Assembly (NCBI GenBank): GCA_037441365.1 | Contig: JBBISG010000003.1 | Span: forward strand, 14,624 to 78,623 | Length of the DNA stretch: 64,000 nucleotides | Origin: Nitrospirota bacterium | GTDB taxonomy: Bacteria; Nitrospirota; Thermodesulfovibrionia; Thermodesulfovibrionales; UBA9159 | Reading direction: 5' to 3' | Part shown: positions 4,428 to 38,473 of the stretch, piece by piece | Layout: every line of letters begins with the position of its first letter | Numbering within the stretch: position 1 is the stretch's first letter | Program-made: the position numbers and the translations under genes | The notes under the pieces: generated by a model | Databases searched by the model: none | What the model was told of the DNA's origin: nothing | Seen by the model: the letters and a program-made list of their open reading frames with translations, nothing else

Positions 4428-4435
4428 ATGGAAAC

Positions 4436-5377: not shown

Positions 5378-5406
5378 TTGACAAAAATTCGAAAATAAGA
5401 TATAAT
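5378..5406 (+). promoter_or_regulatory. consensus sigma-70 promoter (TTGACA-17 nt-TATAAT) for the Rrf2 gene
   Basis: exact consensus hexamers with 17-nt spacer; -10 ends 11 nt before ATG 5418, implying a very short leader. Confidence 0.6.
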
Positions 5407-5417
5407 TACTCTTAATT

Positions 5418-5837
5418 ATGCAGATAACGCGAGAGGCCGACTATGCAATAAGGTGTGTGCTTCATCTCTCAGAATCTGAGGGTGAGATTGTTATGGTGAA
5501 TGAGATCGCAAAGGCAAGAAAGATACCGCGAAGCTTTCTTGCCAAGATACTCCAGAGACTTGCAAAGGCAGGGATTATTAAATCCTTCAGGGGTGTAAAT
5601 GGCGGTTACCAGCTTGCAAAGAGTCCTGAAAAGATCAATCTCCTTGATGTTATCGAGGCCATAGATGGGCCTGTTGCTATGAACAGGTGCGCTATAGACA
5701 GGAGGATGTGCAGTCTGAGTGATGAATGTGTTGTCCATCCTGTGTGGGTTGAACTCAGAAAAGAGACAGAAAGGCGTCTGAGGAAGATAGACTTCAGGCG
5801 TCTAATGGTGTTGCAGGTAGGGGTCGTGAAGGGATAA
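5418..5837 (+). CDS. Rrf2 family transcriptional regulator (IscR/NsrR-like, Cys-containing)
   Basis: 139 aa; MQITREADYAIRCVLHL start, wHTH, C-terminal Cys cluster C-x6-C-x5-C (NRCAIDRRMCSLSDEC). Confidence 0.9.
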   Translation: MQITREADYAIRCVLHLSESEGEIVMVNEIAKARKIPRSFLAKILQRLAKAGIIKSFRGVNGGYQLAKSPEKINLLDVIEAIDGPVAMNRCAIDRRMCSLSDECVVHPVWVELRKETERRLRKIDFRRLMVLQVGVVKG

Positions 5838-5866
5838 TCCATCTGTTACATAGATGTTTCATCATA

Positions 5867-5882
5867 TGTTTCATTTGAAACA
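5867..5882. promoter_or_regulatory. TGT-N10-ACA palindrome (TGTTTCAttTGAAACA), NifA-type UAS consensus
   Basis: perfect 7-bp inverted repeat; centre about 65 nt upstream of the -24 element at 5934. Confidence 0.4.
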
Positions 5883-5933
5883 AAGTCAGACAGGGGCAGG
5901 GGTAAGATTGCTGATATATCGTGCAGATATAAC

Positions 5934-5949
5934 TGGCATGAGTATTGCA
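5934..5949 (+). promoter_or_regulatory. sigma-54 promoter (TGGCAT-gagta-TTGCA)
   Basis: GG-N10-GC spacing exact; near-consensus TGGCAC-N5-TTGCA; upstream of the cox operon. Confidence 0.55.
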
Positions 5950-6018
5950 CTTTAATAAAAATATATTTTAAAGAGAAGAGAAGAGTTTTGTGATTAAAGA
6001 GGATAATTTAAGTCCTGA

Positions 6019-19380: not shown

Positions 19381-20103
19381 ATGGTTGAACTAAGAAAGGC
19401 CCTCTATCTTTTCCCGATCTTAATACTCCTGTCTGCAGTCTCTGCCCCTTCTGAAGACATATACGGAAAAAGGCGTCAGGCCATGCTGGAGCAGGATATA
19501 AAGGCCAGGGGGATAAAGGACGGTAAGGTGATCTGGGTGATGGGGAGGGTGCCGAGACACCTCTTTGTTGATGAGCACCTGAGGGCAAAGGCATATGAGG
19601 ATTATCCCCTTCCAATAGGCGAGGGCCAGACAATATCCCAGCCCTATGTAGTCGCCCTGATGACAGAGGCGCTGAGACTGAGGCCGACTGATAGGGTCTT
19701 AGAGATAGGCGCTGGTTCAGGTTATCAGGCAGCAGTCCTTGCAGAGATTGTAAAAGAGGTCTATACAATAGAGATCAGGAAGGGGCTTGCTGAGAAGGCC
19801 GAGAGAAGACTTAAAGATCTGGGTTACAAAAATGTAAAGGTTAAGTATGGTGATGGATATTTTGGTTGGGAAGAATATGCGCCCTTCGATGCCATAATCA
19901 TAACCGCCTCAGCAAATTACATCCCACCGCCGCTCATAAGGCAGCTAAAGGAAGGCGGCAGGTTGATCATCCCCCTTGGGAGCACTGTATATTACCAGAC
20001 CCTGACACTGGCAACAAAAGAGAGAGGGGAGCTAAATTTAGAGCAGATAGCGCCTGTTGCTTTTGTGCCTATGATTGGAGAGGTCCAGATGAAGGGAAGG
20101 TAA
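19381..20103 (+). CDS. pcm: protein-L-isoaspartate O-methyltransferase
   Basis: [35 protein letters not shown] motif; N-terminal signal-like segment. Confidence 0.9.
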
Positions 20104-24795: not shown

Positions 24796-25362
24796 ATGAA
24801 GGAGATATTTATAGACATCGAGAGGTGCACTGCCTGTAAATCCTGCGAGATTGCCTGTTCTGTGCAACATTCAAAATCAAAGGACCTTTTTACTGCTATC
24901 TCTGAATTCCCACCACCGATAAGAAGGATACATGTGGAAAAGGCCCTCTCTTATTCTTATCCCTCAAAGTGTATGCATTGCGCAGAGGCACCGTGCATGA
25001 TGGCCTGTCCTGTTGGGGCAATATACAGGGATACCGATCTGGGCAGCGTCCATGTCAATAAAGACAGATGCATGGGATGCTGGATGTGCGCCATGGTCTG
25101 CCCCTTCGGGGCGATCACTGCAGACCCTTATATGAAGGTTGCGAGGAAGTGTGATTTCTGCAGGAAAAGGGTAAAGGAGGGCAAGAAGCCTGCGTGTGTG
25201 GAGGCGTGCCCGACCCATGCCCTCAGTTACGGCGAGGTAGATGACCTTTCCAAGGCACAGAGGTTGTCCGCTGCAGAGCGTGTTGCAAGGGCAGTGAGTG
25301 CGGCAGGGGAAGAAAGGAAGATAACACCGTTAAAGATGTTGAGAGATATGGGAGGTGTGTGA
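24796..25362 (+). CDS. cooF: CooF-like 4Fe-4S ferredoxin-type iron-sulfur protein
   Basis: 188 aa with 4 CxxCxxCxxxCP-type clusters; overlaps cooS start. Confidence 0.85.
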   Translation: MKEIFIDIERCTACKSCEIACSVQHSKSKDLFTAISEFPPPIRRIHVEKALSYSYPSKCMHCAEAPCMMACPVGAIYRDTDLGSVHVNKDRCMGCWMCAMVCPFGAITADPYMKVARKCDFCRKRVKEGKKPACVEACPTHALSYGEVDDLSKAQRLSAAERVARAVSAAGEERKITPLKMLRDMGGV

Positions 25363-27263
25363 TGGCGATAAAGACCTTTGACAGGGCCACTCAGGTCTTG
25401 ATAGACAGGGCAGAGGCGTTGGGGATAGAGACAGGGATTCACAGGCTTGAATCCCAACAACCCCAGTGCGGATTCGGTCAGCTTGGAACATGCTGCCGCA
25501 TGTGTTATATGGGGCCATGCAGAATAGATCCCTTTGGAGAAGGGGCTACAATGGGGGTCTGCGGTGCATCGGCTGATACAATTGTCTGCAGAAACCTCTT
25601 GAGGGAAGAGGTGGGAGGCGCATCATCCCATGTGGGGCATGCAAGGCATGTTGTGCTTGCCTTCAAGAAGATGCTCAATGGGGAGGCCCCAGGATATAGA
25701 ATCTCTGACAGGGATAAATTGATGGAGGTGGCCAGGGGGCTTGGAATAGAGATCGATGGGAAATCCGATATGGAGATTGCGGGTGATGTTGCGGACAAGG
25801 CGCTGGAGGATTTATCGAGACAGAACGGAGAGCCCATGAACTGGCTCAGATTGAGAGCGCCTAAGAGGGAATTCGAGATGTGGAGGGCACTCGGTCTCCT
25901 CGTCTCCAACGCGCACAATGAGATCGAGGAGGCGATGCACAGGACATCAATGGGCAATGATGCCGATCCTGTAAATCTCCTTTTTGCCTGTCTGAAGATC
26001 GGCCTTGTGGATGGCTATGCGGGGCTGCATTTGGCTACAGATTTTCAGGATATCATGTTCGGCACACCACGTGTGAGGACTGTTGATGCGAATATGGCTG
26101 TTCTTGAGAAGGATAAGGTTAATATTGCCATACACGGCCATAATCCTGTCCTTTCAGAAAAGGTCCTTGAATTTGCCTCTAAGCTTGAAGATGAGGCACG
26201 GCAGGCTGGTGCGCAGGGCATAAATGTGGTTGGTGTTTGCTGCACAGGCAACGAGCTGACCATGAGACACGGGGTCCCTATGGCAGCTCATAATCTCCAG
26301 TCCGAAATAATACTGCTTACAGGTGCGGTCGATGCAATGGTTGTAGATATGCAGTGCATATGGCCATCCACAACAAAGATATCAGAGTGTTTCCATACCA
26401 AGGTCATTACAACAGAACCCTTTGTAAAGATACCAGGCGCGAGCCATGTTAGTTTTGAGCCCGAACATGCCGATGAAGAGGCAGAGAAGATCGTGAGGAT
26501 GGCTATAGATGCCTATAGGGCGAGGAAGGGTGAAGATGTTGTTATCCCAAAAGAGAAGTCTGTGGGATTTGCAGGCTTCTCTATAGAGGCGATTCTGGAT
26601 GTGCTTGGCAAGATAGACCCCTCAGATCCGCTGAAACCCGTTGTTGATAATATCGTAAATGGAAACATCTATGGCGCTGTGGGATTTGCGGGCTGTCCGA
26701 GTATAAAGCTCAGGGATACATCCATGACAGAGAGGATGGCGAGAGAACTTTTGAAAAATAATGTGCTAATAGTCACCACAGGGTGCACAGCCCATATCTG
26801 TGCCCAGGCAGGGCTGATGGATTCCTCTGCCACTGATAAATACTGCGGTGAGGGACTAAAGGCTGTGCTTCATGTCATAGGAAAGGCTGCGGGCCTTGAT
26901 GTGCCACTGCCTCCTGTATGGCATATGGGTGCCTGTGTGGACAATTCGAGAATTGCTTCACTTCTCGGTGCGCTGGCGGAAAGGCTTGGTGTGAAGATCA
27001 GCCAGCTTCCTGTGGCTGGCTCGGCCCCTGAGCTTGTCCAGGAAAAGGCGATATCGATAGGGACATGGCTCCTTGCCCTTGGACTTCTCGTCCATGTTGC
27101 GCCGAGTCCAAGGATTCTGGGCAGCCCTGTTGCTACAAAGGTGTTGACGCAGGAACTTGAAGGTATTACCGGCGGTAAGGCATATGTAGAGCTCGACCCC
27201 GAGAAGGCAGTAGAAGGGATAATGGCTCATATTGGACAGAAGAGGAAGGCACTGGGGATTTAG
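25359..27263 (+). CDS. cooS: anaerobic Ni-Fe carbon monoxide dehydrogenase catalytic subunit
   Basis: 634 aa; N-terminal CGFGQLGTCCRMCYMGPCRI cluster B/D motif; GVCCTGNE; GCTAH. Confidence 0.9.
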   Translation: MMAIKTFDRATQVLIDRAEALGIETGIHRLESQQPQCGFGQLGTCCRMCYMGPCRIDPFGEGATMGVCGASADTIVCRNLLREEVGGASSHVGHARHVVLAFKKMLNGEAPGYRISDRDKLMEVARGLGIEIDGKSDMEIAGDVADKALEDLSRQNGEPMNWLRLRAPKREFEMWRALGLLVSNAHNEIEEAMHRTSMGNDADPVNLLFACLKIGLVDGYAGLHLATDFQDIMFGTPRVRTVDANMAVLEKDKVNIAIHGHNPVLSEKVLEFASKLEDEARQAGAQGINVVGVCCTGNELTMRHGVPMAAHNLQSEIILLTGAVDAMVVDMQCIWPSTTKISECFHTKVITTEPFVKIPGASHVSFEPEHADEEAEKIVRMAIDAYRARKGEDVVIPKEKSVGFAGFSIEAILDVLGKIDPSDPLKPVVDNIVNGNIYGAVGFAGCPSIKLRDTSMTERMARELLKNNVLIVTTGCTAHICAQAGLMDSSATDKYCGEGLKAVLHVIGKAAGLDVPLPPVWHMGACVDNSRIASLLGALAERLGVKISQLPVAGSAPELVQEKAISIGTWLLALGLLVHVAPSPRILGSPVATKVLTQELEGITGGKAYVELDPEKAVEGIMAHIGQKRKALGI

Positions 27264-27270
27264 CATTACC

Positions 27271-27307
27271 GGGCACCCCAAAAAGTCTGCGACTTTTTGG
27301 GGTGCCC
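27271..27307. repeat. palindromic element, full copy (17-bp perfect stem, loop TGC)
   Basis: GGGCACCCCAAAAAGTC-TGC-GACTTTTTGGGGTGCCC, 8 nt after the cooS stop. Confidence 0.9.
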
Positions 27308-27345
27308 CTTTCATGGTCTTCGTCTGAAGGGTTGATGGTATTTCG

Positions 27346-28560
27346 ATGAGAATTATAATCATAGGCAATGGCGCTGCTGCCATAAGCGCAGTAGAGGCGA
27401 TACGGAGATGGAATAGAGATTGTGTGGTCACAATAGTGTCAAAGGAAAGAGAACCTGTGTATACCCCCTGTTTTCTCAGTAACTATCTGAGTGGAGAGAT
27501 CGATAAGGGTAGACTCTATATAAGAGACAGCCGTTTTTACGATGAAAATAAGATAGAAACGATATTTGGAAATGCTGCCCTTGAGGTCAGGGATAAATGG
27601 ATAAGGCTCTCGGATGGAAGAGAGCTGCCCTATGACAGGCTCTTGATAGCTGCTGGGTCAAGCCCTGTTGTCCCACAATTGCCTGATATGGAGGGGGAAG
27701 GTGTCTTTTCTTTCAAGACCATTGCAGATGCTGATGGTATTAGATCCGCCATTGCAGATGCAGGTGAAGCAGTGGTGATGGGAGCAGGCTTTATCGGTCT
27801 GGAGGTGGCAGAGGCCCTCAAGAAAAGGGGGGTTAAGGTTACTGTAATAGAGAGGGAAGACAGGATTCTCCCCAGAATGTTAGACAACGAGATGTCAGGG
27901 ATTGTGAGGGAACATTTAGAAAACAACGGGATAAGGATAATTACTGGGAAGGAAATAAGACTTATTCGGAGGGTCAGAGGGCGGCTTTCAGGTCTTGATA
28001 TCGGGGGAGAGACTGTCCCATGTAGATTGTTAATTTTAGCAGCAGGTGTTAGGCCGAATCTTGAGATGATCAGGGATGGATTTGTGAAGGTTCGAGATGG
28101 GATCCTGGTGGATGGCCGTATGAAAACAAATATCGACAATATCTATGCTGCAGGCGATATAGCTGAGATGGAGACCATAGGGATCAGGAAGATTAATCCC
28201 ATATGGTTCAATGCTGTAAAGGGTGGCGAAGTGGCAGGATTGAATATGATCGGCATCGAAAAGAGATACGACATCCCTCTGGTCGATATGAATGTGGTTA
28301 CTCTTTTTGGACTGTCTATCCTTTCCGCTGGTATTCAAGAAGGTGCCAAGACAATAAAGGTTCATGACTCTAAAGGCATCAGAAAGATTTATCTGGACGA
28401 GGACGGGCTTGTAGCAGGAGTGCAGTTGATAGGTAATGTTACAAAGGGCGGTCTTTATCTGTCACTCATTAATAAACGTCTTCCTGTAAAGGATGAGATG
28501 GGGATTCTATCCTATAGATTTAATTATGGCGTTATGTTAAAGCAGCAGGCCCACAGATGA
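27346..28560 (+). CDS. FAD-dependent pyridine-nucleotide-disulfide oxidoreductase (CODH-associated)
   Basis: 404 aa; two GxGxxA/G dinucleotide folds (IIIIGNGAAA, VVMGAGFIGLE), YAAGD motif. Confidence 0.85.
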   Translation: MRIIIIGNGAAAISAVEAIRRWNRDCVVTIVSKEREPVYTPCFLSNYLSGEIDKGRLYIRDSRFYDENKIETIFGNAALEVRDKWIRLSDGRELPYDRLLIAAGSSPVVPQLPDMEGEGVFSFKTIADADGIRSAIADAGEAVVMGAGFIGLEVAEALKKRGVKVTVIEREDRILPRMLDNEMSGIVREHLENNGIRIITGKEIRLIRRVRGRLSGLDIGGETVPCRLLILAAGVRPNLEMIRDGFVKVRDGILVDGRMKTNIDNIYAAGDIAEMETIGIRKINPIWFNAVKGGEVAGLNMIGIEKRYDIPLVDMNVVTLFGLSILSAGIQEGAKTIKVHDSKGIRKIYLDEDGLVAGVQLIGNVTKGGLYLSLINKRLPVKDEMGILSYRFNYGVMLKQQAHR

Positions 28561-28632
28561 CAATATGGTAATCGGTATGTCCGTATCTGGTCCTTAAAAT
28601 AAAACTTGACCTTTGGTTTAAAAATCAATAAA

Positions 28633-28642
28633 ATATGCATAT
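28633..28642. promoter_or_regulatory. ATATGCATAT palindrome overlapping the first ArsR start (candidate operator)
   Basis: same 10-mer recurs at 29010..29019; preceded by TTGACC-17-TAAAAT. Confidence 0.4.
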
Positions 28643-28973
28643 GCGAAAGGATAAGACACTCTTTGAGTTGCAATCCGATGTCTGTAAAACCCTTGCAAGC
28701 CCGAAGAGGATCGAGATACTCGATGCCCTGAAGAGCGGAGAGAAGACTGTTAGCGAGCTCGTGGAGATACTTGGTGTGCCAAAGGCAAATGTATCGCAAC
28801 ATCTTGCAGTGATGCGGTATAAGGGTATACTTAAATCGAGAAGGGAAGGGATAAACATATATTACAGCGTTTCGAATCCAAAGGTAATAGAGGCATGCAT
28901 TCTGATGAAAGAGGTCCTTATGGAGCAAATGAGAGAGAAGGGCAAGTTGGCAGAGATGGCATCAAGGGCATAA
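28635..28973 (+). CDS. ArsR/SmtB family transcriptional regulator
   Basis: 112 aa; LASPKRIEILDAL...VSELVEILGVPKANVSQHLAVMR wHTH; start may be ATG 28641 (leaderless). Confidence 0.85.
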   Translation: MHMRKDKTLFELQSDVCKTLASPKRIEILDALKSGEKTVSELVEILGVPKANVSQHLAVMRYKGILKSRREGINIYYSVSNPKVIEACILMKEVLMEQMREKGKLAEMASRA

Positions 28974-29009
28974 TTTTTTTCTTGGCAAAATATATTCAAA
29001 TATTATTAT

Positions 29010-29019
29010 ATATGCATAT
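29010..29019. promoter_or_regulatory. ATATGCATAT palindrome in the second ArsR promoter (candidate operator)
   Basis: embedded in TATATGCATATA, 6 nt upstream of ATG 29025. Confidence 0.4.
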
Positions 29020-29024
29020 AAGAT

Positions 29025-29369
29025 ATGCGTTCTATAGGTAGGAGAATAGAGGTCCTTCGGGTTATCGCCCATCCAACGAGGATCAGGATACTCGAGGAAC
29101 TTACAAAGGGTGTAAAGTGTGTGAGCGACCTTGAGGAGTTTCTCGAGATAAGTCAGCCGAATGTCTCACAGCATCTCGGCCTTTTAAGGCAGTATGGTTT
29201 GATTGACTATTACATGGATGGCAGGCTCAGGTGCTATTTTCTCAGGGACCCGATAATCCCTGATATCATAGAGATTCTGAAGAAGGATTACATCAGGGAG
29301 CTTCCAGCCCCTGCATGCTGTCCTGTAACAAAGAAGGGTAAATACCCGGGTAGGAGGGCATCAAAGTGA
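29025..29369 (+). CDS. ArsR/SmtB family transcriptional regulator (C-terminal CC motif)
   Basis: 114 aa; AHPTRIRILEEL...VSDLEEFLEISQPNVSQHLGLLR; PAPACCPV tail. Confidence 0.85.
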   Translation: MRSIGRRIEVLRVIAHPTRIRILEELTKGVKCVSDLEEFLEISQPNVSQHLGLLRQYGLIDYYMDGRLRCYFLRDPIIPDIIEILKKDYIRELPAPACCPVTKKGKYPGRRASK

Positions 29370-29396
29370 AAACAAGGGTGTCAGTAAGGAGGTAAG

Positions 29397-29753
29397 ATGG
29401 CAAAGAGATTTACATTGTTCCTGTCCACATCGCCTTATTCTTACGAGAACACGCTGACCACCATAAGGATCGCTGAGTCTGCTTTGAACAAAGGACATGT
29501 GGTGAATCTAATTGCATCAGGCGATGGGGTGTATTGTTTTTTGAAAGGTCAAAAGGCAAAGGGGGTACCTAATGCCGAAGAGAGATTCTCTGAACTTATC
29601 CAAAAGGGTTTAAGGGTCTATCTCTGAGGAGGCTGCATGAACTTTCGCCGTGCAGCGAAGGAAGACTATATTGACGGTGCAGAGGTGGGTTCTCTCAAGG
29701 GCCTCTTCAGGACCATGGGTGAGACGGATGTGTGGCTGAATATCGGTGTGTAA
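29397..29753 (+). CDS. DsrE/TusD-like sulfur-relay subunit with selenocysteine (UGA codon 77) at the active-site Cys position
   Basis: AAGGAGGT SD; 76-aa track ORF ...KGLRVYL-TGA(29625..29627)-GGCMNFRRAAKEDYIDGAEVGSLKGLFRTMGETDVWLNIGV-TAA; total 118 aa, normal DsrE length. Confidence 0.7.
29632..29656 (+). other. candidate bacterial SECIS hairpin (GCUGCAU-11 nt-GUGCAGC)
   Basis: 7-bp stem (one G-U) starting 5 nt 3' of the UGA. Confidence 0.4.
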
Positions 29754-29765
29754 CAGGAGGGCAAG

Positions 29766-30119
29766 ATGGGCAGGATTGCGATGATTCTCAGAAGGTCGCC
29801 ATATGGTGACATCAGTGCAGCAGAGGCTGTCAGGCATGCGATGGGAGGTGCTGCCGATGACCTCAGCATTAGCCTGATATTGGTTGACAGCGGGGTTTTC
29901 CTTGCGAAGAAAGGACAGGACGATGCAGGCACAGGGTATACAAATCTTGGAACTGCGTTAAAGGACTGTATCGATATGGGTGTGGAGGTTTATGCGGATA
30001 AGGCCTCTGTAAGGGAGAGGGATCTTGAAGCCGTAGATATTATAGATGGTGTGAGAATAGTTAATGGCTCTGAAATAGCGGAGATGCTGAAAGAAGCAGA
30101 GACAACAATGATCTTTTAG
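29766..30119 (+). CDS. DsrF/TusC-like protein
   Basis: 117 aa; ILRRSPYGDISAAEAVRHAMGGAA...LILVDSGVFLAKKGQD pattern. Confidence 0.75.
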   Translation: MGRIAMILRRSPYGDISAAEAVRHAMGGAADDLSISLILVDSGVFLAKKGQDDAGTGYTNLGTALKDCIDMGVEVYADKASVRERDLEAVDIIDGVRIVNGSEIAEMLKEAETTMIF

Positions 30120-30129
30120 GGAGGGCAAT

Positions 30130-30411
30130 ATGCTTGTAATAGTGAAGAACTCGCCTGACACCTTAGATGGTAGAAGGGGTATAAAACTTGCGCGTGATAT
30201 GGCTGCGGATCTGGTTCTTATACAGAATGGTGTTTATTTTGCTCAAAAGGAAAGGCTTGAAGGTTTTTGCGGGACTGCCTATGTTCTTGGCGAGGACATC
30301 GGACTCAGGGGACTGAAGGATGAAGATATCGAGAAGGGAGTAAGGAAATTGGATTATAACGGCCTTGTTGATCTGATGGCTGAGGAAGATAAGGTAGTGG
30401 GGATGTTTTAA
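30130..30411 (+). CDS. DsrH/TusB-like protein
   Basis: 93 aa; MLVIVKNSP...DLVLIQNGVYFA pattern. Confidence 0.7.
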   Translation: MLVIVKNSPDTLDGRRGIKLARDMAADLVLIQNGVYFAQKERLEGFCGTAYVLGEDIGLRGLKDEDIEKGVRKLDYNGLVDLMAEEDKVVGMF

Positions 30412-30438
30412 CACACACTCTGTATGAGGGGGGTAGCG

Positions 30439-31626
30439 ATGGCAAGGATACTAATTTTAGGTGGGTCATTTGGCGGGCTTACTGTAGCCTTTGAACTGAG
30501 AAGACTGCTGGGTAAGGATACAGATATAACCCTTCTGTGCGACATGGACAGGTTTGTGTTTATCCCATCCCTTCCATGGCTTGCAATGGGATGGAGGAGG
30601 GCGGAGGAAATAAGCCTTCCGCTGAAAGGGATTCTTGCCTCAAAAGGGATTCATTTTATCCATTCTGCGGCTATGTCTGTTGACCCTGAAAGGTCGATTG
30701 TAAAGACAGGGGATAGGGAATTCCCTTACGACTACCTTGTAGTTTCGACAGGCCCCTATCTCGCATTTGAAGAGGTTCCAGGTCTTGGACCTGAAAATGG
30801 CTATACAGAATGTATCTTCACACTTGAGCAGGCAGAAAGGGCAAACAGGGCATGGAATAGACTTCTTGAAAATCCAGGACCTGTTGTTATTGGCTCTGTA
30901 CAGGGTGTGAGTTGTTTTGGCCCTCCTTACGAATACGCCTTTGAGGTCGATACAGAGCTTAGAAGAATGAAGATGAGACACCGAGTGCCTATCTTCTTTG
31001 TCACCTCAGAACCATATATTGGCCATTTTGGAATTGGTGGATTAGGCAAATCAAGGAGAATCATGGAGGATGAGTTTGCCGAGAGGGATATCAGGGTTAT
31101 GGTAAATCAGGCGGTTGAGGAGATTACCCCTGAAGATGTGAGGCTAAAAGATGGGACAAGATTGCCCTTCAGGCTTGCCATGTTTGCACCCGCATTCAAG
31201 GGTGTTCCTGCTGTTGCACCCATCGGAAATCCGAGGGGTTTTATACCTGTGGATAAAAACTACAGACACACAAAGTATAAGAATATTTTCGCTGTTGGCG
31301 TTGCTATGGCGATTGCCCCTCCCGAGCCGACTCCTGTGCCCACCGGTGTGCCAAAGACAGGATATATGACAGTTAAGATGGCAAGGGCTGCAGCCTCTGC
31401 GATTGCTTCTGAAATCAGGGCTGAGACACCTCCCTCACCTGACGAACTGTCAGTTATCTGTCTCATGGATATGGGTAATACCGCTGCATATATGAAGGCG
31501 AAACCTGTTCTTCCGCCGAGACAGGAGTCTTTGCTTAAAAAGAGTATCTGGTTTAAGTCCCTAAAGGTCGGGTTCGAAAGGTATTTTCTCTGGAAGATGA
31601 AGCACGGATTGAGTAATTTACCATAA
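30439..31626 (+). CDS. sulfide:quinone oxidoreductase-like flavoprotein
   Basis: ILILGGSFGG FAD fold; conserved SQR cysteine contexts GVSCFGPPYEYAFE and VICLMDMGN; track start 30424 also possible. Confidence 0.8.
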   Translation: MARILILGGSFGGLTVAFELRRLLGKDTDITLLCDMDRFVFIPSLPWLAMGWRRAEEISLPLKGILASKGIHFIHSAAMSVDPERSIVKTGDREFPYDYLVVSTGPYLAFEEVPGLGPENGYTECIFTLEQAERANRAWNRLLENPGPVVIGSVQGVSCFGPPYEYAFEVDTELRRMKMRHRVPIFFVTSEPYIGHFGIGGLGKSRRIMEDEFAERDIRVMVNQAVEEITPEDVRLKDGTRLPFRLAMFAPAFKGVPAVAPIGNPRGFIPVDKNYRHTKYKNIFAVGVAMAIAPPEPTPVPTGVPKTGYMTVKMARAAASAIASEIRAETPPSPDELSVICLMDMGNTAAYMKAKPVLPPRQESLLKKSIWFKSLKVGFERYFLWKMKHGLSNLP

Positions 31627-31647
31627 TCTGAGATCTCAGGAGGGGAG

Positions 31648-34023
31648 ATGAAGAAACAATGGCTTGTTGAGTTTTCTGTTGACCATCCAAAAACCGTTGT
31701 CCTGCTCACAATAATTATCACTATTATCTTTATGACCCAGTTTCCAAAGATAAAGACAGACACAAATCCCAAAAACATGCTTCCTGCCACATCAGATGTA
31801 AGGGTATGGAATGATGAAGTTGACAGGATATTCGGACTTTATGAGGACACAATAGTAATCGGCATAAGAAATGAAAATGGAGTCCTGAATAAGGAGACCC
31901 TTGGAAAGATAAAGAGGATAACAGATGAGATACTGAAGATCAAGGGAGTTGCATCCAGTGATGTAAATAGCTTTCCTACAATTACAAATGTAACTGCTGA
32001 AAAGGGGACTTTAAGGGTAGCGCCTCTCATGACCGAAGTCCCAGAAACAGAAAGAAATATAAAGGCGCTTCAAAAGAACCTTTTTGAAAATCCCATACTC
32101 CTTGATCGCATTATCTCAAAGGATGGAAAGACGACAGCCATATATGTTCCCCTTGAAAAGGGAGCAAACGGTAAAGAGATTGCAGACAGGATCAGGGAGA
32201 TACTGAAGAATGAAAAAGGGGAGAAGGGCACCCAAAAAAGTCAAAGACTTTTTGGGGACCGCGGCGATGAGTTTTACATCGCAGGAGACCCTGTTGCAAG
32301 GGATACCTTTGGTGTTGAGATGTTCAAATTAATGGCGATCTTTGCTCCCCTTGCAGGTCTGATAATGCTTGTTGTGAGGTATCTCATGTTCAGGGATCTA
32401 TTCCTTTCAGTCACATTGATGATGGATGCAATGGTGAGCATTATCTGGAGCATGGGTCTTTTGATAGGGACAGGAATCCCTGTTCACATCATGAGTTCAA
32501 TGGCCCCTGTATTCCTTATGGCTATTGCAACAGACAGCATCCATATATTCAATGAATTCTACTTCCGTTTCAGAGAGAGCAAGGATAAGAGACTTGCAAT
32601 AGTAGAGACGATGAGGGCTGTTGGAAGGCCTGTCCGTTACACAGCAGCAGCAACTGCAGCAGGCTTTGCAGTCCTCCTCTTTATGCATATCATCCCTGTA
32701 AAGGTCTTTGGAGGTGTTGTCGCCTTTGGAACGATTGCCCTGAGGCTTCTGAGTTTCAGTTTCATCCCTGCTATGTTCATGTTTGTGAGCGAAAAGAAAC
32801 TTGAGGAGGCATCAAAGAGGGAGGATATAGAGGCAGGTGCATCGAGGCTTCTCAAAGGGCTTGCAAGGATAGGTGCAGAAAACCCTGTGAAGACAGCTAT
32901 TACAGGTCTTATCCTCTTTTTTGTAGCAATAGTCGGGATAACAAAGATAAATGTTAATAACAACATGGTGGACTGGTTCAAGAAGAAAAGCGAGATCCAC
33001 ATTGCTGACTCTGTTTTAAATAATGCCCTTGGCGGCACATCCCTCGGTTACATCGTGGCTATATCCTCAAAGGATGAGCATATCAAGACCCCTGAGGCAT
33101 TGAGATATATAGAAGGGCTCCAGAGGCACCTCGAAAAACTCCCTGTGGTTGGAAAGACCAGCTCAATAGCAGACCTCATAAAGAGGATAAACAGGGTGAT
33201 ACATGATAATGACCCTACTTACGACAGGGTTCCAGATTCAAAGGAGGTGATAGCCCAGTATCTATTCTTATTCAGCATGTCTGCAAGGCCCTCTGATATT
33301 GACAGCTTTATAGATTATCCAGCAAGAAGGGCAAACATGTGGGTCCAGTTAAAGACATGGGATGCAGAGGCAATGAGGGATGTGATAAAGGCTGTTGATG
33401 AGTATAAGAAGAAATCTCCTGCAGGAGACATAGAATTCAGACCTGCTGGCATTGCCTATTTCAATCTCGTCTGGAACGATGAGGTCCTCTGGGACATGGT
33501 AAAGGGCTTTGTCCTCGCAATCATAGCAGTCTTTGTGATATTGAGCCTTGACTTCCGCTCAATGAAATGGGCTTTCATTGCCTATATGCCGCTCCTGTTC
33601 ACGATTGTCCTCATCTACGGTGTAATCGGATATGTCGGCAAGGACTTTGATATGCCCATCTCCGTGCTTTCATGTCTCTCACTCGGTATGGCAGTGGACT
33701 TTGCCATTCATTTCATAAGCAGATTTAAACAGAGATTAAGAGAGAGTCAGGAGTCAGAAGTCAGGACTCAAAAGTTAAATCCTGAACTCCTTCGTGAAGC
33801 CTTGATCTGGACTGCTGCAAGGCCTGGAAAGGGAATCCTTCGTAATGCAGTTTTATTTGCATCGGCATTTTCAGTAATGCTCTTTGCACCACTTACACCC
33901 TATATAACCGTTGGTGCATTCATCGTAAGCATGATGATACTGAGTGCGATAATGACGATTATCTATCTGCCAGCCCTGATTACTTTAATGCAGGGGTGGT
34001 TATTCAAGGGAGGCACTAAATGA
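31648..34023 (+). CDS. RND-superfamily (MMPL/HpnN-like) exporter
   Basis: 791 aa; two 6-TM bundles with large loops; carries an in-frame palindromic element (32227..32260) and a heptamer-word segment (33744..33790). Confidence 0.85.
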   Translation: MKKQWLVEFSVDHPKTVVLLTIIITIIFMTQFPKIKTDTNPKNMLPATSDVRVWNDEVDRIFGLYEDTIVIGIRNENGVLNKETLGKIKRITDEILKIKGVASSDVNSFPTITNVTAEKGTLRVAPLMTEVPETERNIKALQKNLFENPILLDRIISKDGKTTAIYVPLEKGANGKEIADRIREILKNEKGEKGTQKSQRLFGDRGDEFYIAGDPVARDTFGVEMFKLMAIFAPLAGLIMLVVRYLMFRDLFLSVTLMMDAMVSIIWSMGLLIGTGIPVHIMSSMAPVFLMAIATDSIHIFNEFYFRFRESKDKRLAIVETMRAVGRPVRYTAAATAAGFAVLLFMHIIPVKVFGGVVAFGTIALRLLSFSFIPAMFMFVSEKKLEEASKREDIEAGASRLLKGLARIGAENPVKTAITGLILFFVAIVGITKINVNNNMVDWFKKKSEIHIADSVLNNALGGTSLGYIVAISSKDEHIKTPEALRYIEGLQRHLEKLPVVGKTSSIADLIKRINRVIHDNDPTYDRVPDSKEVIAQYLFLFSMSARPSDIDSFIDYPARRANMWVQLKTWDAEAMRDVIKAVDEYKKKSPAGDIEFRPAGIAYFNLVWNDEVLWDMVKGFVLAIIAVFVILSLDFRSMKWAFIAYMPLLFTIVLIYGVIGYVGKDFDMPISVLSCLSLGMAVDFAIHFISRFKQRLRESQESEVRTQKLNPELLREALIWTAARPGKGILRNAVLFASAFSVMLFAPLTPYITVGAFIVSMMILSAIMTIIYLPALITLMQGWLFKGGTK
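32227..32260. repeat. palindromic element, slightly degenerate copy inside the RND CDS
   Basis: GGCACCCAAAAAAGTC-AAA-GACTTTTTGGGGACC, translated in frame as GTQKSQRLFGD. Confidence 0.85.
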
Positions 34024-34826
34024 GAAAATCCAAGATTCTATCTATCTGTCTTCTGTTGTCTGTCCTCTGTCTTCTAACCTCTAAGGCCATTGCCATTACA
34101 CCAGAGGATGTAATGAAGAAATCACAGGCTGCGTTTCTGTATCAGGGAAAGGACTTCAAGGCACGGGTAATAATGAAACTCATAAGCAGGGGTGGTCAGG
34201 AAAGGATAAGGGAGCTCACCATGCTGAGGAAGAACTATGGTGAGCCTGGCGGCAATCAGAAATATTTTATCTATTTCTTCCAGCCTGCTGATGTAAAGGA
34301 TATGACATTTATGGTCTACAAATATCCTGCAAGAGACGATGACAGATGGCTCTTTGTGCCTGCCATAAATATGGTCAGGAGGATTGCTGCTCAGGATAAG
34401 CGCTCAAGCTTTGTTGGTTCTGATTTTACATATGAGGATGTCTCTGGAAGGGATATTGATGATGACACCCATACAATTCTGAAGGAAGAAAAACTTGGAG
34501 AAAGGGCCTGCTATGTGATAAAGAGCACACCAAAGGCAGGAGATATGGATTATAGCTACAAACTATCATGGATTGATAAGGCAAACTTTCTGCCTTTAAA
34601 AGAAGAATACTACGACAGAAAAGGTGAACTCTATAAGGTCTTCACTGCTGATGAAATAAGGGAGATAAAGGGATTTCCTACGGTGACGAAGAGGACGATG
34701 AAAAATCTCCAGAGCGGGCACAGGACAGAGGTTACATTCATAAAGGCTGATTACAACATCGGCATTGAGGATAGCCTATTTTCAGAACGTTTTTTAAAAC
34801 AACCACCAAAAAGGTGGATTGATTAA
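34020..34826 (+). CDS. LolA-like outer-membrane lipoprotein-sorting family protein
   Basis: 268 aa with signal peptide; ATGA overlap with the RND gene; typical RND-MMPL neighbour. Confidence 0.65.
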   Translation: MRKSKILSICLLLSVLCLLTSKAIAITPEDVMKKSQAAFLYQGKDFKARVIMKLISRGGQERIRELTMLRKNYGEPGGNQKYFIYFFQPADVKDMTFMVYKYPARDDDRWLFVPAINMVRRIAAQDKRSSFVGSDFTYEDVSGRDIDDDTHTILKEEKLGERACYVIKSTPKAGDMDYSYKLSWIDKANFLPLKEEYYDRKGELYKVFTADEIREIKGFPTVTKRTMKNLQSGHRTEVTFIKADYNIGIEDSLFSERFLKQPPKRWID

Positions 34827-35125
34827 AAGAAGAATCCTTTTATCAGAAATGCCACAATGCCTATGAGGTTTAAGATTACAATTATATATAATCTGTCAAA
34901 GCGTTTGTTAATGTTATCAAAGCGTTCGTTGACATCAAGCATGAAGGTGTCAAAGCGTTTGTTGGTTTCGTCAATTCGCTTATTGATATTAGCAAATTCT
35001 TCTTTTATTTCTGATTTAAAATCCCTTATCTCAGCCCGTATTAAGTCCAATTCCCTGAAGATAAAAGTTAGGGGGTCTGCCTTATACAGAATATCTTCTT
35101 TCTTTTCTTCTGTTTGCGGTGCCAT
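34823..35125 (-). CDS. coiled-coil protein with C-terminal TM anchor (XhlA-like architecture), nested antisense in an operon gap
   Basis: MAPQTEEKKED...INKRIDETNKRFDTFMLDVNERFDNINKRFDRLYIIVILNLIGIVAFLIKGFFF; NKRFD repeats mirrored by TCAAAGCGTTTGTT nucleotide repeats. Confidence 0.35.
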   Translation of the reverse strand: MAPQTEEKKEDILYKADPLTFIFRELDLIRAEIRDFKSEIKEEFANINKRIDETNKRFDTFMLDVNERFDNINKRFDRLYIIVILNLIGIVAFLIKGFFF

Positions 35126-36350
35126 GTCTTTTATTATATTGATTCTAACAGCAATGTCAAGCATTACTTATGCTCAGGACATCTCTATTCACGGTTTCTT
35201 TCAGGGGAACTATTCCTTCAGCACGAGGGCAAATCCTGATGGAGGCGATTTCAAATGGGGAGATGTGAGAGCACAATTAAGGCTCGAGGCATCAAAAGAG
35301 CCCTTCAGGTTATTTCTAAAAACTGATGGATTCCTTGACCACATCAATCAAAAGGGAGACTTAGATCTGAGGGAAGGCTATATAGACTATACAGCAAAGA
35401 ATTGGGATTTGAGAGTCGGTAGACAGATCATCACGTGGGGGCTTGGTGATTTGATTTTTATAAATGATGTATTCCCAAAAGACTATGAGTCATTCTTCTC
35501 TGGAAGGCCAATGGAATACCTTAAAAAAGGTGTTGATGGTGCAAAGCTTGGTATCTATCCAGGTTTTGCATCTTTTGAACTTGTTGCTGTTCCTTTTTTC
35601 GAACCAAATAATTTCCCTGATCCAAAAAGGTTCCATATGTTTGACCCTATGCCAAATATCACAAACAGGGAGGAAAGAGAACCGACCACAAGTTTTAAAA
35701 ATACCGAGTTTGCCATGCGAATATATCGTGATGTTGCAGGCCTTGATGCATCGCTGTATTTTTATCGTGGTTTCTTCAGGCAGCCATGGATGATGCCTGA
35801 TAACCCAATGATGCCAACAAGGCTCACGCTCTTTTATCCTAAGTTGTCTGTTTATGGTGCAAGCCTCCAGGGAAGGGCACTGGATGGAGTTTTAAGCCTT
35901 GAGGCAGGATATTATGATTCAAGGCAGGACAGCGGTGGCACAGACCCTATGATTCCAAACTCCCAGACGAGGTTTTTGATTGGTTATCAGAGGCAGTTGT
36001 GGGAGGACTTTACAATCGGGCTTCAATATTATGTTGAATACATGCACGATTATTCAGAATACAGAAAGAGCCTTCCTCAAGGATTTCCAGAGGAAAAGAG
36101 ACTCTATCAGCTCATGACTGTAAGGCTCACACAACTACTTGTGCAGCAGACATTGAGATTATCTTTCTTTGCCTTTTACAGTCCTTCGGACAGGGACTAT
36201 ATGTTAAATCCAGAGGGCAGATACAGCGTGACCGACCGCATATGGGTGGCGGTTGGAGCCCATATCTTCGGTGGTGGCAAAAACTGGACACAGTTCGGGC
36301 AGTTAGACAGGAATGACAATGTTTATTTACAATTGAGATACGAATTTTAG
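35124..36350 (+). CDS. outer-membrane beta-barrel protein
   Basis: signal peptide MSFIILILTAMSSITYA-QD; alternating beta pattern; C-terminal LQLRYEF; the 89 codons upstream in the track are low-complexity and rejected. Confidence 0.6.
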   Translation: MSFIILILTAMSSITYAQDISIHGFFQGNYSFSTRANPDGGDFKWGDVRAQLRLEASKEPFRLFLKTDGFLDHINQKGDLDLREGYIDYTAKNWDLRVGRQIITWGLGDLIFINDVFPKDYESFFSGRPMEYLKKGVDGAKLGIYPGFASFELVAVPFFEPNNFPDPKRFHMFDPMPNITNREEREPTTSFKNTEFAMRIYRDVAGLDASLYFYRGFFRQPWMMPDNPMMPTRLTLFYPKLSVYGASLQGRALDGVLSLEAGYYDSRQDSGGTDPMIPNSQTRFLIGYQRQLWEDFTIGLQYYVEYMHDYSEYRKSLPQGFPEEKRLYQLMTVRLTQLLVQQTLRLSFFAFYSPSDRDYMLNPEGRYSVTDRIWVAVGAHIFGGGKNWTQFGQLDRNDNVYLQLRYEF

Positions 36351-36352
36351 CC

Positions 36353-38473
36353 CTACATGCTTACCCTCACCTTCCATGTGGTTCCGTCCTTTTTATCCTC
36401 AAGGATTATCCCCTGTTCCTCCAGCTCCTTTCTTACGGCGTCTGCCGTTGCCCAGTCCTTCCTCTGTCTCGCCTCCTGCCTCTGCTTTATCCTGTCGAGA
36501 ATATCTTCCCTTGTGAGGGGGATATTCTTTGTCTTCATGAGGGAGTCATACCACTCATCAGGACTTTTATTGAAGATATTAAGCACGTTGCCAGCCTGAT
36601 GCAGCAGTTCCTTTGTTTTTGATACGAGGTCCCCTGCCTTCCGACCTGATGGCCTGGTGTCGAGAAACCTGTTAACCTCCCTTATCAGCTCAAAGATATA
36701 CCCCAGTGCCTGGGCAGTATTGAAGTCGTCATCCATAGCCTCTTTAAACTTATCCAGAAATGTAGAGACCGCATCTTCAAGGGTCTTCCCCTGCAGAGAC
36801 GGCCATGACGAACCTCCCTCTCCCTTAAATTCTTCCATCCTTATCAGGGTAGTGTAATATCTATCAAGGGATGCCTCTGCTTCTCTGAGCAATGCGTCAG
36901 AAAATTCTATAGGGCTTCTGTAGTGGGTCGAAAGGAGGAAGAATCTCACAACCTCAGAGTCGAACTTATCGAGTATCTCCCTGATGGTAAAGAAGTTACC
37001 GAGGGACTTTGACATCTTCTCCTTATCGATGGTGATAAAGCCGTTGTGCAGCCAGTATTTAACAAAGGGCTTGCCGGTATATGCCTCTGACTGGGCCAAT
37101 TCATTTTCATGGTGAGGGAATATCAGGTCTGCGCCGCCACCGTGGATATCAAAGCTCTCGCCAAGGTGTTTTATGGACATGGCAGTGCATTCGATATGCC
37201 AGCCTGGCCTCCCAGGACCCCACGGGCTCTCCCATGATGGCTCACCTTCTTTCGATGACTTCCAGAGGGCAAAATCCATTGGATTCCTCTTTCTCTCGTC
37301 TACCTCAACTCTGGCACCTGCAAGCATCTCCTCAATATCCCTCTTTGAGAGCTTTCCGTAATCAGGGAATCTGTTCACCTCAAAATACACATCTCCATCT
37401 ACAACATATGCATATCCCTTATCTATCAACACCCTGACTATCTCTATTATCTCCTGTATATGTTCTGTCGCCTTCGGCTCAACATCAGCCCTTCCGACAC
37501 CGAGCCTGTCCATGTCTTTGTAGTACTCCTCTGTGTATTTCCTTGCAACCTCATCCCACTGGATTCCTTCCTGCCTTGCCCTGTTAATTATCTTGTCGTC
37601 GATGTCGGTGAAGTTCCTTATGTATCTCACATCAAAACCTCTGAATCTCAGGTATCTCCTTATGACATCAAAGACGACGGCGCTCCTTGCATGGCCGATG
37701 TGGCATAGGTCATAGACTGTGACTCCACATGCGTACATGCCAATCTTATTAGGGGTCAGAGGGATCAGATCCTCTTTTTTACCTGTTAGGGTATTGAAGA
37801 CCCTTACCACTCCTCCTTTCCCCTCAAGCCTCTCTATCCTTTTTTCGAGTTCTGATATATGCTTTTCCATCTCGCTGAATTTCTCCTCCACCGGGTCGGG
37901 CATCTGGACGCGTGCAAGGCTCTCCACAGGTCCTTCTTCCATCATCCTGAGGACCCTCTTCTTGATGACCTTTCCAGGGACACCAACGACAATGGAGTAT
38001 TCAGGCACAGAACTGAGCACCACCGCATTGGCACCTATCCTTGCATAATCGCCTATGGTGATTGCGCCCAGTACCTTGGCCCCGGCCCCCACCACTACAT
38101 GATTCCCCAGTGTTGGATGGCGCTTCCCCTTTTCCTTTCCTGTCCCGCCGAGGGTTACACCCTGATAGAGAAGGCAGTCCTCTCCGATCTCTGTGGTCTC
38201 TCCTATCACAACACCCATGCCGTGGTCTATGAAAAAGCCCGGCCCTATCCTTGCTGCAGGGTGTATCTCGATACCTGTTAAGAACCTTGCGATATGCGAG
38301 ATAAGGCGGGGGATTACAGGTATCCCGAGCCTCCAGAGGAAATGATTTATCCTGTGAATGAATATGGCATGAAATCCTGGATAGGCGAGGATTACCTCAA
38401 GGCCATTTCTCGCAGCAGGGTCTTTCTCAAAGACTGCCCTGTAGTCCCTCTTTATGTCGCTCCAGAAACCCAC
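36353..38473 (-). CDS. cysS: fused serine O-acetyltransferase / cysteinyl-tRNA synthetase
   Basis: single 706-aa ORF, GTG start; aa 1-220 CysE (hexapeptide repeats, [16 protein letters not shown]-type tail); aa 222-706 CysRS ([13 protein letters not shown]). Confidence 0.85.

Follow-up and report, generated by a model that had tools for sequence, protein, structure and literature searches.

A predicted ArsR-controlled operon joining a sulfide:quinone oxidoreductase and a selenocysteine-containing DsrEFH-like trio in Nitrospirota

We analyzed a gene block on contig JBBISG010000003.1 (assembly GCA_037441365.1) of a Nitrospirota bacterium of the Thermodesulfovibrionales, within a stretch of 64,000 nucleotides (positions 14,624 to 78,623 of the forward strand) that is termed the window below; coordinates are positions in this window. 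From the sequence alone, positions 28580 to 31626 had been proposed to hold an undescribed module of seven co-directional genes, encoding two ArsR repressors, a selenocysteine (Sec)-containing DsrEFH-like relay and a sulfide:quinone oxidoreductase (SQR); we refer to this proposal as the original prediction. Open reading frame (ORF) calls together with Pfam and NCBIfam profile scans of the window proteins confirmed the genes at the predicted coordinates. The block consists of the following genes, all located on the plus strand:

28635-28973, plus strand: arsR1, ArsR/SmtB repressor (HTH_5, E 1e-14; NF033788, 83 bits at a cutoff of 55; alternative start at 28641)
29025-29369, plus strand: arsR2, ArsR/SmtB repressor (HTH_5, E 1e-14; NF033788, 78 bits at a cutoff of 55)
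29397-29753, plus strand: dsrE-like selenoprotein gene of 118 codons, with the TGA at 29625-29627 read as Sec77 and a TAA that ends at 29753
29766-30119, plus strand: dsrF/tusC-like subunit (PF02635, E 3e-16)
30130-30411, plus strand: dsrH/tusB-like subunit (PF04077, E 6e-12)
30424-31626, plus strand: SQR, type I-like, 400 amino acids (E 7e-102 to the Aquifex SQR 3hyv)
31648-34023, plus strand: MMPL/HAE3-family resistance-nodulation-division (RND) transporter (PF03176, TIGR00921), 21 nt downstream of sqr
34020-34826, plus strand: LolA-like (TP_0789/DUF1329-like) periplasmic protein (PF17131, E 5e-66), the start of which overlaps the MMPL stop codon
35124-36350, plus strand: outer-membrane beta-barrel (DUF1302/Wzi-like), 35124 being the probable start and 34857 the start of the mechanical ORF

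The co-directional arrangement holds, the count of seven does not: there are six genes up to sqr, since the TGA splits dsrE into two ORF pieces. Nor does the block end at 31626; it continues for about 4.7 kb through the MMPL, LolA-like and barrel genes to 36350. From arsR2 through the LolA-like gene, neighboring genes are separated by 10 to 27 nt or overlap. The three subunit genes are adjacent in the order PF02635, PF02635, PF04077, with gaps of 10 to 12 nt between dsrE, dsrF and dsrH, and the 21-nt gap behind sqr predicts that dsrEFH-sqr and the RND set are co-transcribed in the window.

The dsrE-like gene contains 76 codons (29397-29624), the TGA and 41 further in-frame codons up to the TAA; the 118-aa read-through product matches PF02635 with E 7e-18. 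Sec-type loci were collected from a scan of one genome per GTDB species (80 loci) and from four metagenome contigs. The codon at this position is TGA in 84/84 of them and never another stop or a sense codon, and the approximately 41 codons behind it are kept under amino-acid constraint (GGC[LMV]NFRRAAK.DY..G.E.GSLKGLF.TM.E.D.W.N.GA). A protein search with the read-through product returned more than 100 clusters, nearly all of exactly 76 aa and labelled Nitrospirota or Thermodesulfovibrionales, and a few full-length matches that carry a Cys at the position of the TGA. In these Cys homologues (records labelled Chloroflexi, Moorella and Spirochaetota) LCGGC or LCGTC is aligned to L-U-G-G-C, and Sec77 sits where the family has an invariant Cys (motif L-[C/U]-G-x-C). 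A candidate for the selenocysteine insertion sequence (SECIS) lies directly downstream:

29632-29656, plus strand: SECIS-like hairpin with an 8-bp stem and the loop AACUUUCGC, starting 5 nt past the UGA

In 81 distinct sequences, 78.7% of the hairpin cells are paired; controls with shifted partner columns reach 21-49%. The mean entropy at third positions drops to 0.42 bit in codons +5 to +10, from 1.35 bit in the other codons, and some codons are nearly frozen: Arg+7 is CGC in 82/82, Arg+8 is CGU in 76/80 and Ala+10 is GCG in 78/79 sequences. Such a synonymous freeze around the hairpin is what would be expected for a SECIS element. An Rfam scan of 28000-32500 and 34700-35300 yielded chance matches only and no bacterial SECIS family, and is uninformative; the fold z-score of the whole segment (0.2) was not significant. 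The invariant TGA, the Cys homologues and the constrained synonymous sites bear out the proposal that the TGA encodes Sec and is not a stop, a reading that we regard as nearly certain. Nitrospirae carry selB and selC according to a review (PMC13188914).

A "DsrE-like, UxxC, PF02635" selenoprotein family has been catalogued since 2005-2006 (PMC1088965; PMC1794560; PMC13188914) and was recorded in Desulfovibrio vulgaris (PMC1794560); the presence of Sec in a DsrE is thus no novelty in itself. The window protein resembles this family, known from the Sargasso Sea and D. vulgaris, in combining PF02635 with a UxxC motif, here U-G-G-C; the likeness is one of catalogue description only, and the catalogues give neither a function nor F and H partners nor an operon. 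Among the papers searched, none described an arsR-dsrE(U)FH-sqr module.

The sqr product matches the Acidithiobacillus ferrooxidans enzyme (3t31) with E 1e-99 and thus resembles both solved type I SQRs, 3hyv and 3t31, at E ~1e-100 and in its three cysteines. Cys124, Cys156 and Cys347 of the Aquifex aeolicus enzyme are all kept in the alignment to 3hyv. Both redox-cysteine contexts that had been pointed out, GVSCFGPPYE and VICLMDMGN, are present, and the third cysteine lies in TECIF. Ile346 and Phe385 (Aquifex numbering), which we take to be the quinone-stacking residues, are likewise conserved. The window protein contains the first C-terminal helix with the Phe385 equivalent and then ends about 34 residues short of the Aquifex SQR; the absent residues presumably form the region of the second C-terminal amphipathic helix. 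The ending ...GLSNLP is common to the whole clade, so the short C-terminus is a trait of these proteins and does not stem from truncation. Judged by these residues, the flavoprotein is a genuine SQR of the type I-like kind.

DsrF and DsrH match the Allochromatium vinosum subunits 2hy5_B (E 2.5e-10) and 2hy5_C (E 4e-6), respectively. The best solved relative of the DsrE is E. coli YchN (1jx7), in which LCKTC is aligned to L-U-GGC. The family is narrow: a search of 1.84 billion representatives gave 58 clusters at E<=1e-10. As in DsrEFH of A. vinosum (2hy5) and TusBCD of E. coli, three adjacent genes belong to the DsrE, DsrE and DsrH Pfam families. In contrast to these systems, the nucleophile in the window is a Sec within U-G-G-C, accompanied by a second cysteine, and the trio is linked to sqr, arsR and the RND set instead of dsrAB/dsrC or tusA/tusE. 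The nucleophile is residue 77 here and the active Cys78 in A. vinosum DsrE, a closeness in residue numbering.

Recently, a non-canonical DsrEFH type II was described in organisms with reductive DsrAB, including Nitrospirota, with a suggested role downstream of SQR (Plum-Jensen et al., 2026; PMC13293266). It shares with the window trio the departure from canonical DsrEFH and the proposed position behind SQR. Type II carries Cys67, is syntenic with tusA and yeeE and is missed by sequence-based annotation tools (PMC13293266). The window trio is set apart from this published description: it is recognized by Pfam, has Sec77 and is syntenic with sqr and arsR, Cys67 and tusA are lacking, and yeeE occurs in only 5/53 relatives. 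The functional cysteine was conserved in 99.3% of the sequences in the type II survey (PMC13293266); Sec-type genes were therefore probably not captured there, or were truncated. Most Thermodesulfovibrionia were reported to "possess dsrFH, but no dsrE" (PMC11033732). Truncation of dsrE by gene callers at the Sec codon would give exactly this result, and the Sec codon is the likely explanation for such reports.

A further relative in fold is YedF, which combines a SirA-like domain with a DsrE-like domain; the latter carries a CGXC motif and is linked to SelD (PMC5322559; PMC2432076). The window DsrE has the same fold with a C/U-G-x-C motif, and in relatives the gene adjoins selD, a NifS-like gene, a selenium-type LysR gene and YedE/YeeE, as in the SelD-linked gene set. 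Unlike YedF, it lacks a SirA/TusA domain and is part of a three-subunit system, its dominant partner is SQR, and the window contains no selD.

In a survey of gene neighborhoods, window proteins were used as phmmer queries against six-frame ORFs of the related loci, which are denoted by L numbers below; only loci with enough flank were counted. In the Nitrospirota loci the following genes were found:

dsrF and dsrH after dsrE: 71/77 loci
sqr after dsrH: 58/66 loci
arsR2 upstream of dsrE: 54/69 loci
MMPL gene after the module: 38/53 loci
LolA-like gene: 26/51 loci
outer-membrane barrel gene: 30/49 loci
DrsE_2-family protein: 27/53 loci
arsR1-type gene: 19/53 loci
TauE: 13/53 loci
small thioredoxin (Trx)-like ORF: 9/53 loci
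YeeE/YedE: 5/53 loci

The arsR1-type gene is often located between sqr and the MMPL gene and then overlaps the sqr stop codon. The accessory genes of the relatives belong to sulfur-trafficking families (TauE, YeeE/YedE, DrsE_2, NifS). The flanks vary, with ExoVII/URO-D/peptidase genes in L001-L004 and a CO dehydrogenase gene in the window; the block thus stays together while its surroundings change. The survey thus revealed a conserved module, and judging from gene order it is a real operon that is widely conserved in sulfate-reducing Nitrospirota of the Thermodesulfovibrionia type.

Some relatives contain further genes with an in-frame TGA. YeeE/YedE genes (PF04143) are present in L015, L017 (two copies), L018, L022 and L029, and all six copies have the TGA, in the context …TGG-U-AAGMLWRSAEGY… followed by about 80 conserved codons (in L018, gene at 8778-9966 and TGA at 9717). 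From this pattern YeeE/YedE is predicted to be a second selenoprotein in the operon of these relatives; it is a listed Sec family with the motif GUxSG (PMC13188914). The small ORF of L049 (8898-9173) reads MKKNTITMYVNDPMGKR-TGA-LSNMEAAGRAEKEF…LPCPSV, and homologues lie between arsR2 and tauE/dsrE in about 9/53 loci. With C in place of U it had no Pfam match; it may be a third, thioredoxin-like selenoprotein. After the barrel gene, about 7-9 kb downstream of dsrE, L017 and L018 also contain an additional unit of arsR2, yeeE with TGA and a gene for a type III-like SQR; the operator motif of the main module described below precedes this unit.

Relatives with Cys in place of Sec were found by protein search and metagenome scan and amount to about 34 loci, again in records labelled Chloroflexi, Moorella and Spirochaetota. 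E, F and H are always contiguous there, and the ArsR beside these trios is 56% identical to the window ArsR1, with both cysteines kept. In 18 of the approximately 34 loci the trio is flanked by a different SQR, which is type III-like: the type III model NF049943 gives 222-260 bits on these proteins compared to about 100 for the window SQR. As the SQR partner was replaced non-orthologously in other lineages, the link between SQR and trio would be functional and not inherited. This replacement is strong evidence, and the best available from sequence comparison, that SQR and the trio work together. NifS-type cysteine desulfurases recur in seven Cys-type loci. In addition, S-adenosylmethionine (SAM) methyltransferases (UbiE/Methyltransf_11/25/31 type) are encoded beside arsR-sqr-dsrEFH in L090, L092, L095, L098, L100, L101, L104, L106 and L108; these may methylate sulfide or selenide.

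The two regulators differ in their cysteines. ArsR1 has Cys17 and Cys88, conserved in 26/31 orthologues; ArsR2 has Cys32, Cys70, Cys98 and Cys99, conserved in 44-45/48 orthologues, and the C-terminal motif PAPACCPVTKKGxYPG. The best structural relative of ArsR2 is PDB entry 8QKF. A promoter scan and comparison of the upstream regions predicted these elements:

28606-28634, plus strand: arsR1 promoter, TTGACC-17-TAAAAT
28982-29009, plus strand: arsR2/dsrE promoter, TTGGCA-16-TATTAT
28994-29017, plus strand: predicted operator, a 10-4-10 inverted repeat ATTCAAATAT-TATT-ATATATGCAT that overlaps the arsR2 promoter (element 28982-29022)

The -10 box of arsR1 abuts the start codon, and its mRNA is therefore probably leaderless. 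In front of arsR2-dsrEFH-sqr, the putative operator overlaps both the -35 and the -10 box. With spacers of 1-9 nt allowed, its consensus ATGCAAATAT-N4-ATATTTGCAT had 55 matches in 1.2 Mb of related loci and two in the reversed sequence, and nearly all matches have a spacer of 4. They are located at arsR2/dsrE promoters and again upstream of the MMPL gene in at least 11 loci; since the operator is common to both sites, dsrEFH-sqr and the RND set would form one regulon.

The original prediction had assigned a shared operator-like palindrome to the two repressor genes. The palindrome ATATGCATAT occurs exactly at 28633, at 29010 and at 37406 inside cysS; with one mismatch there are nine matches compared to 3.5 expected, a number reached by 1/100 shuffles. 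The copy at 29010 is the right half-site of the 10-4-10 operator and the sole copy within the conserved operator, and the copy at 28633 consists of the end of the -10 box (TAAAAT) and the adjoining arsR1 start codon. Orthologous arsR1 upstream regions keep TTGACC...TA[AG]AAT-ATG without the palindrome. This comparison rules out the palindrome as a common operator.

The last three genes look like an envelope-spanning exporter of hydrophobic cargo, composed of the MMPL/HAE3 pump, the LolA-like protein and the barrel. From the start at 35124 the barrel has a likely signal peptide, MSFIILILTAMSSITYA, and it ends ...RYEF; some homologues carry PF06980 or PF14052 (DUF1302 or Wzi domains). The AF2 model is all-beta with a low-confidence pLDDT of 59 and a porin resemblance of TM ~0.42, which supports a porin-like beta-barrel and nothing finer. 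Zero-valent sulfur or selenium, or a lipid, are speculative cargo candidates. A gene of the fatty-acid hydroxylase/sterol desaturase family occupies the usual MMPL position in L049 (12914-13690) and L075, a hint at a possible membrane-lipid role for the downstream genes of the regulon.

Taken together, we propose with moderate confidence that the block encodes an ArsR-repressed chalcogen relay of SQR and Sec-containing DsrEFH, which is conserved in anaerobic Thermodesulfovibrionia-type Nitrospirota and most likely handles sulfide and sulfane sulfur. The type I-like SQR would oxidize HS- at the membrane, pass the electrons to quinone and build up zero-valent sulfur on its cysteines. A cytoplasmic complex of DsrE, DsrF and DsrH would take over the sulfane sulfur on Sec77/Cys80 (U-G-G-C) of DsrE, and DsrE would hand it to a downstream acceptor encoded outside the window. 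Bound to the 24-bp inverted repeat, the two Cys-bearing ArsRs would silence the promoter, and modification of their thiols by reactive sulfur or selenium would relieve the repression. The RND pump, the LolA-like protein and the barrel, co-transcribed here and co-regulated through the operator in relatives, would transport a hydrophobic product or a lipid to the outer membrane or through it.

We favor this relay for several reasons. The SQR is closely related to structurally solved type I enzymes and has kept all three cysteines, DsrF and DsrH match A. vinosum, and Sec occupies the invariant Cys position of the family. E-F-H is contiguous in the window, in 71/77 Sec-type loci and in the Cys-type loci; sqr follows the trio in 58/66 loci, and a type III-like SQR flanks it in 18 of about 34 Cys-type loci. 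In different phyla the trio is accompanied by an ArsR1-type regulator that has both cysteines, the 10-4-10 operator overlaps both the arsR2/dsrE and the MMPL promoters, adjacent genes from arsR2 to the LolA-like gene overlap or lie 10-27 nt apart, and the accessory genes in relatives are of sulfur-trafficking families. The comparisons establish the gene identities, the decoding of Sec, the conservation of operon and operator and the co-occurrence of SQR, trio and ArsR across phyla. Direct persulfide transfer from SQR to DsrE, the inducer and the pump cargo are inferred, and the pathway may serve detoxification, assimilation or reverse-Dsr energy metabolism.

The module joins two known kinds of system, sulfide-responsive SQR operons and DsrEFH relays. 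Like the cst operon of S. aureus (cstR-tauE-cstA-cstB-sqr) and the BigR/SqrR regulons, it places a thiol-bearing repressor beside an operon of SQR and a sulfurtransferase, to which its relatives add a TauE or YeeE membrane protein. In contrast to these operons it has no persulfide dioxygenase (PDO) or rhodanese and instead a Sec-containing DsrEFH-like carrier; the repressor cysteines are located elsewhere, and the RND/LolA-like/outer-membrane-barrel set is attached.

Several observations weigh against the sulfur relay or parts of it. As predicted, dsrAB, dsrC, tusA, PDO and rhodanese genes are absent within about 8 kb on either side of the block, and no link to DsrC/TusE, dsrAB or mnmA was recognized in the window or in about 115 related loci. 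The DsrE is nearer to YchN than to A. vinosum DsrE, and all three subunits score under the equivalog cutoffs: 15.9 compared to 89 bits for TIGR03012 (TusD/DsrE), 48.2 compared to 94 bits for TIGR03010 (TusC/DsrF) and 48.5 compared to 49.2 bits for TIGR03011 (TusB/DsrH). Type I SQRs are usually placed on the periplasmic side of the membrane, from where they could not deliver sulfur directly to a carrier in the cytoplasm. The hairpin has zero compensatory base changes across the 81 distinct sequences, because its sequence hardly varies, and RNAalifold on the 81 post-UGA sequences gave a weak 5-bp consensus and preferred a smaller alternative hairpin; we therefore relied on the synonymous-site constraint.

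Also on this side stand the regulators, for which BigR/SqrR-type control had been suggested. The cysteine pair of BigR (C42/C108) and SqrR (C41/C107) is missing from both ArsRs in the alignment, the N-terminal Cys being aligned with Asp and Glu in the two proteins, and the BigR equivalog scores are 50.6 and 43.6 bits at a cutoff of 155. With the defining cysteines absent and the scores so far under the cutoff, membership in BigR/SqrR is ruled out. In a manual alignment to BigR, Cys88 of ArsR1 presumably lies about eight residues before the C108 position. What the module has in common with BigR/SqrR systems is its arrangement, with a predicted inverted-repeat operator over the promoter of an operon that combines a repressor gene with genes of sulfide oxidation. 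The CC motif of ArsR2 could bind a metalloid. A metal-resistance reading of the ArsR and RND genes was rejected, as the pump is of the MMPL/HAE3 type, which differs from the HME type for heavy metals, and genes for metal binding are lacking; ArsR2 may nevertheless sense a metalloid through the CC motif.

Finally, the neighborhood of the module in relatives includes selenium genes. A tblastn search with SelD located selD inside or beside the module in 10/81 Sec-type Nitrospirota loci: between arsR2 and dsrE(U) in L038, L056, L039 and L088, immediately behind dsrH in L045, and next to the module in L047, L068, L023, L054 and L051. In most cases tauE comes next, and an arsR-selD-tauE arrangement is frequent. 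At about 20 genes per locus, chance adjacency of selD to the module would be below 1%. In the Cys-type loci selD is adjacent in 2 of about 34. In Moorella naiadis (L089) the trio is directly downstream of nifS and a Sec-containing selD (3837-4883; SPGSG-U-ACKVGP), and in Roseilinea (L092) it is directly downstream of a Sec-containing selD (~4936-5970; HGAG-U-ACKIGP). The best match of the divergent LysR in both loci is the selenium-metabolism LysR model NF040786, at 228-231 bits compared to a cutoff of 250.

A serious alternative is a selenium module in which SQR oxidizes hydrogen selenide, the [U/C]GxC motif of DsrE carries Se(0) to SelD or to disposal and the ArsRs sense selenium. It is possible, and we hold it as a tentative second reading. 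Besides the selD genes, usually paired with tauE, and the Sec-containing selD with a divergent selenium-type LysR at the Cys-type trio in Moorella (there also with NifS) and Roseilinea, it could account for the additional in-frame TGA genes in relatives (YeeE and the Trx-like ORF) and for the SAM methyltransferases that flank several Cys-type loci. Some bacteria have fusions of SelD with SQR-like COG1252 flavoproteins (PMC2432076), the window SQR has TIGR03169 as its second-best NCBIfam match, and mammalian SQOR oxidizes H2Se (bioRxiv 10.1101/2023.04.13.535674). However, selD is missing from 71/81 Sec-type and about 32/34 Cys-type loci and from the window, where tblastn found no selD, nifS, tauE, yeeE or DrsE_2 gene across the 64 kb. 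The dominant partner is SQR, the canonical sulfide enzyme, sulfide would outcompete selenide by orders of magnitude in sulfidic habitats, and TauE, YeeE and NifS are equally sulfur genes. The co-location of selD could equally reflect Sec supply for an induced selenoprotein or selenium as the substrate. Given the selD, tauE and Sec-type yeeE genes of the relatives, the words "or selenium", which the original prediction had put in parentheses, deserve much more weight, and selD together with the Moorella and Roseilinea context points to selenium as a possible candidate substrate.

In a stricter version, which we consider doubtful, the trio is a dedicated selenium carrier: SQR would oxidize traces of hydrogen selenide, the Sec of DsrE would selectively retain Se(0) as a diselenide-type adduct despite the vast excess of sulfide, the complex would feed SelD or the surplus would be exported through the RND set, and the Cys-rich ArsR2 would be the selenium sensor. 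If true, bacteria would for the first time have a defined route that leads from environmental selenide to selenophosphate, and no selenium-selective relay would precede this one.

A third reading takes the trio as an oxidative-type DsrEFH of a reversible Dsr pathway, in which sulfur from SQR passes through DsrE(U)FH to DsrC and a reductive-type DsrAB running in reverse, so that these supposed sulfate reducers would live on sulfide oxidation or sulfur disproportionation. The hosts belong to the Thermodesulfovibrionia type of Nitrospirota, a class reported with pervasive dsrAB (PMC11033732). DsrEFH was argued to enable reversal of the pathway with reductive DsrAB, and reversal through DsrEFH type II was proposed for cable bacteria (Plum-Jensen et al., 2026; PMC13293266). 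The likeness of DsrF and DsrH to the A. vinosum subunits fits, and YeeE adjoining dsrE in 5/53 relatives echoes the SQR-YeeE-carrier-DsrEFH scheme of that work (PMC13293266). Nevertheless, we judge this reading unlikely: no linked dsr genes were recognized in the approximately 115 related loci, repressor control and an efflux set look like a stress or homeostasis operon, and the DsrE/TusD equivalog score is far under its cutoff. Cys-type versions are furthermore found in Moorella and Roseilinea, which to our knowledge are not known for dissimilatory sulfur oxidation.

Very unlikely is a TusBCD-type relay for the synthesis of tRNA wobble 2-thiouridine (with SelD, 2-selenouridine), in which SQR adjacency would reflect ambient sulfide as the sulfur source. 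Automatic annotations do name the protein TusD, and the adjacency of NifS and selD at some Cys-type loci fits an s2U/se2U pathway; however, the TusD, TusC and TusB cutoffs are missed, and the family, at 58 clusters among 1.84 billion representatives, is narrow. Moreover, tusA, tusE, mnmA and selU were not recognized among the locus genes (only tusA was checked specifically, near the window), and repressor control with an RND exporter is ill-suited to a housekeeping pathway. The idea that the TGA is a true stop or marks a pseudogene and that the gene adjacency is a lineage accident fits only the gene calls, which end at 76 aa in every database entry, and appears effectively refuted by the TGA in 84/84 loci with about 41 conserved in-frame codons behind it, the Cys homologues, the constrained synonymous sites and hairpin just downstream, the module kept amid differing flanks and the non-orthologous replacement of its SQR partner.

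The module is of interest in several respects. An annotation artefact with ecological consequences would be mended: dsrEFH serves as a marker of sulfur oxidation, surveys score Thermodesulfovibrionia as having "dsrFH but no dsrE" (PMC11033732), and screens for an active-site cysteine (PMC13293266) would miss a Sec-type DsrE. SQR gains a protein partner whose genetic linkage to it persists in different phyla, and the fate of SQR-bound zero-valent sulfur in anaerobes becomes testable. The DsrE-like selenoprotein family, which has been without function for two decades, is assigned a context and partners. The recurrent selD, Sec-YeeE and selenium-type LysR genes raise the possibility of an SQR-coupled selenium route, and two new ArsR subfamilies with Cys signatures and a putative 24-bp operator are defined at the sequence level.

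The window contains additional features around the block. A gene on the minus strand (34826-35125) is inserted between the LolA-like and the barrel gene; it encodes a 100-aa coiled coil with NKRFD repeats and a C-terminal hydrophobic helix and has only a weak CCDC90-like match. A sigma-70 consensus promoter with a perfect 12/12 match is predicted just upstream of it at 35160-35133, and the corresponding gap in L018, the one relative inspected, is only about 75 nt. Upstream of the block (24796-28560) are genes for a cooF-like ferredoxin, the anaerobic CO dehydrogenase CooS (TIGR01702, 695 bits) and an FAD/NAD(P) oxidoreductase, a cluster that is unrelated to the module and not kept beside it in relatives. 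Further upstream, a 787-aa ORF without a Pfam match is located at 20069-22432 (minus strand). No tRNA genes were found in the 64-kb window. Downstream of the block, the convergent cysS is followed by pilus/type II secretion system genes. CysS (36353-38473, minus strand) is a 706-aa cysteinyl-tRNA synthetase with an N-terminal hexapeptide-repeat extension resembling serine acetyltransferase, and the same type of cysS-hexapeptide fusion flanks the module in another genome (L018, 6226-8355).

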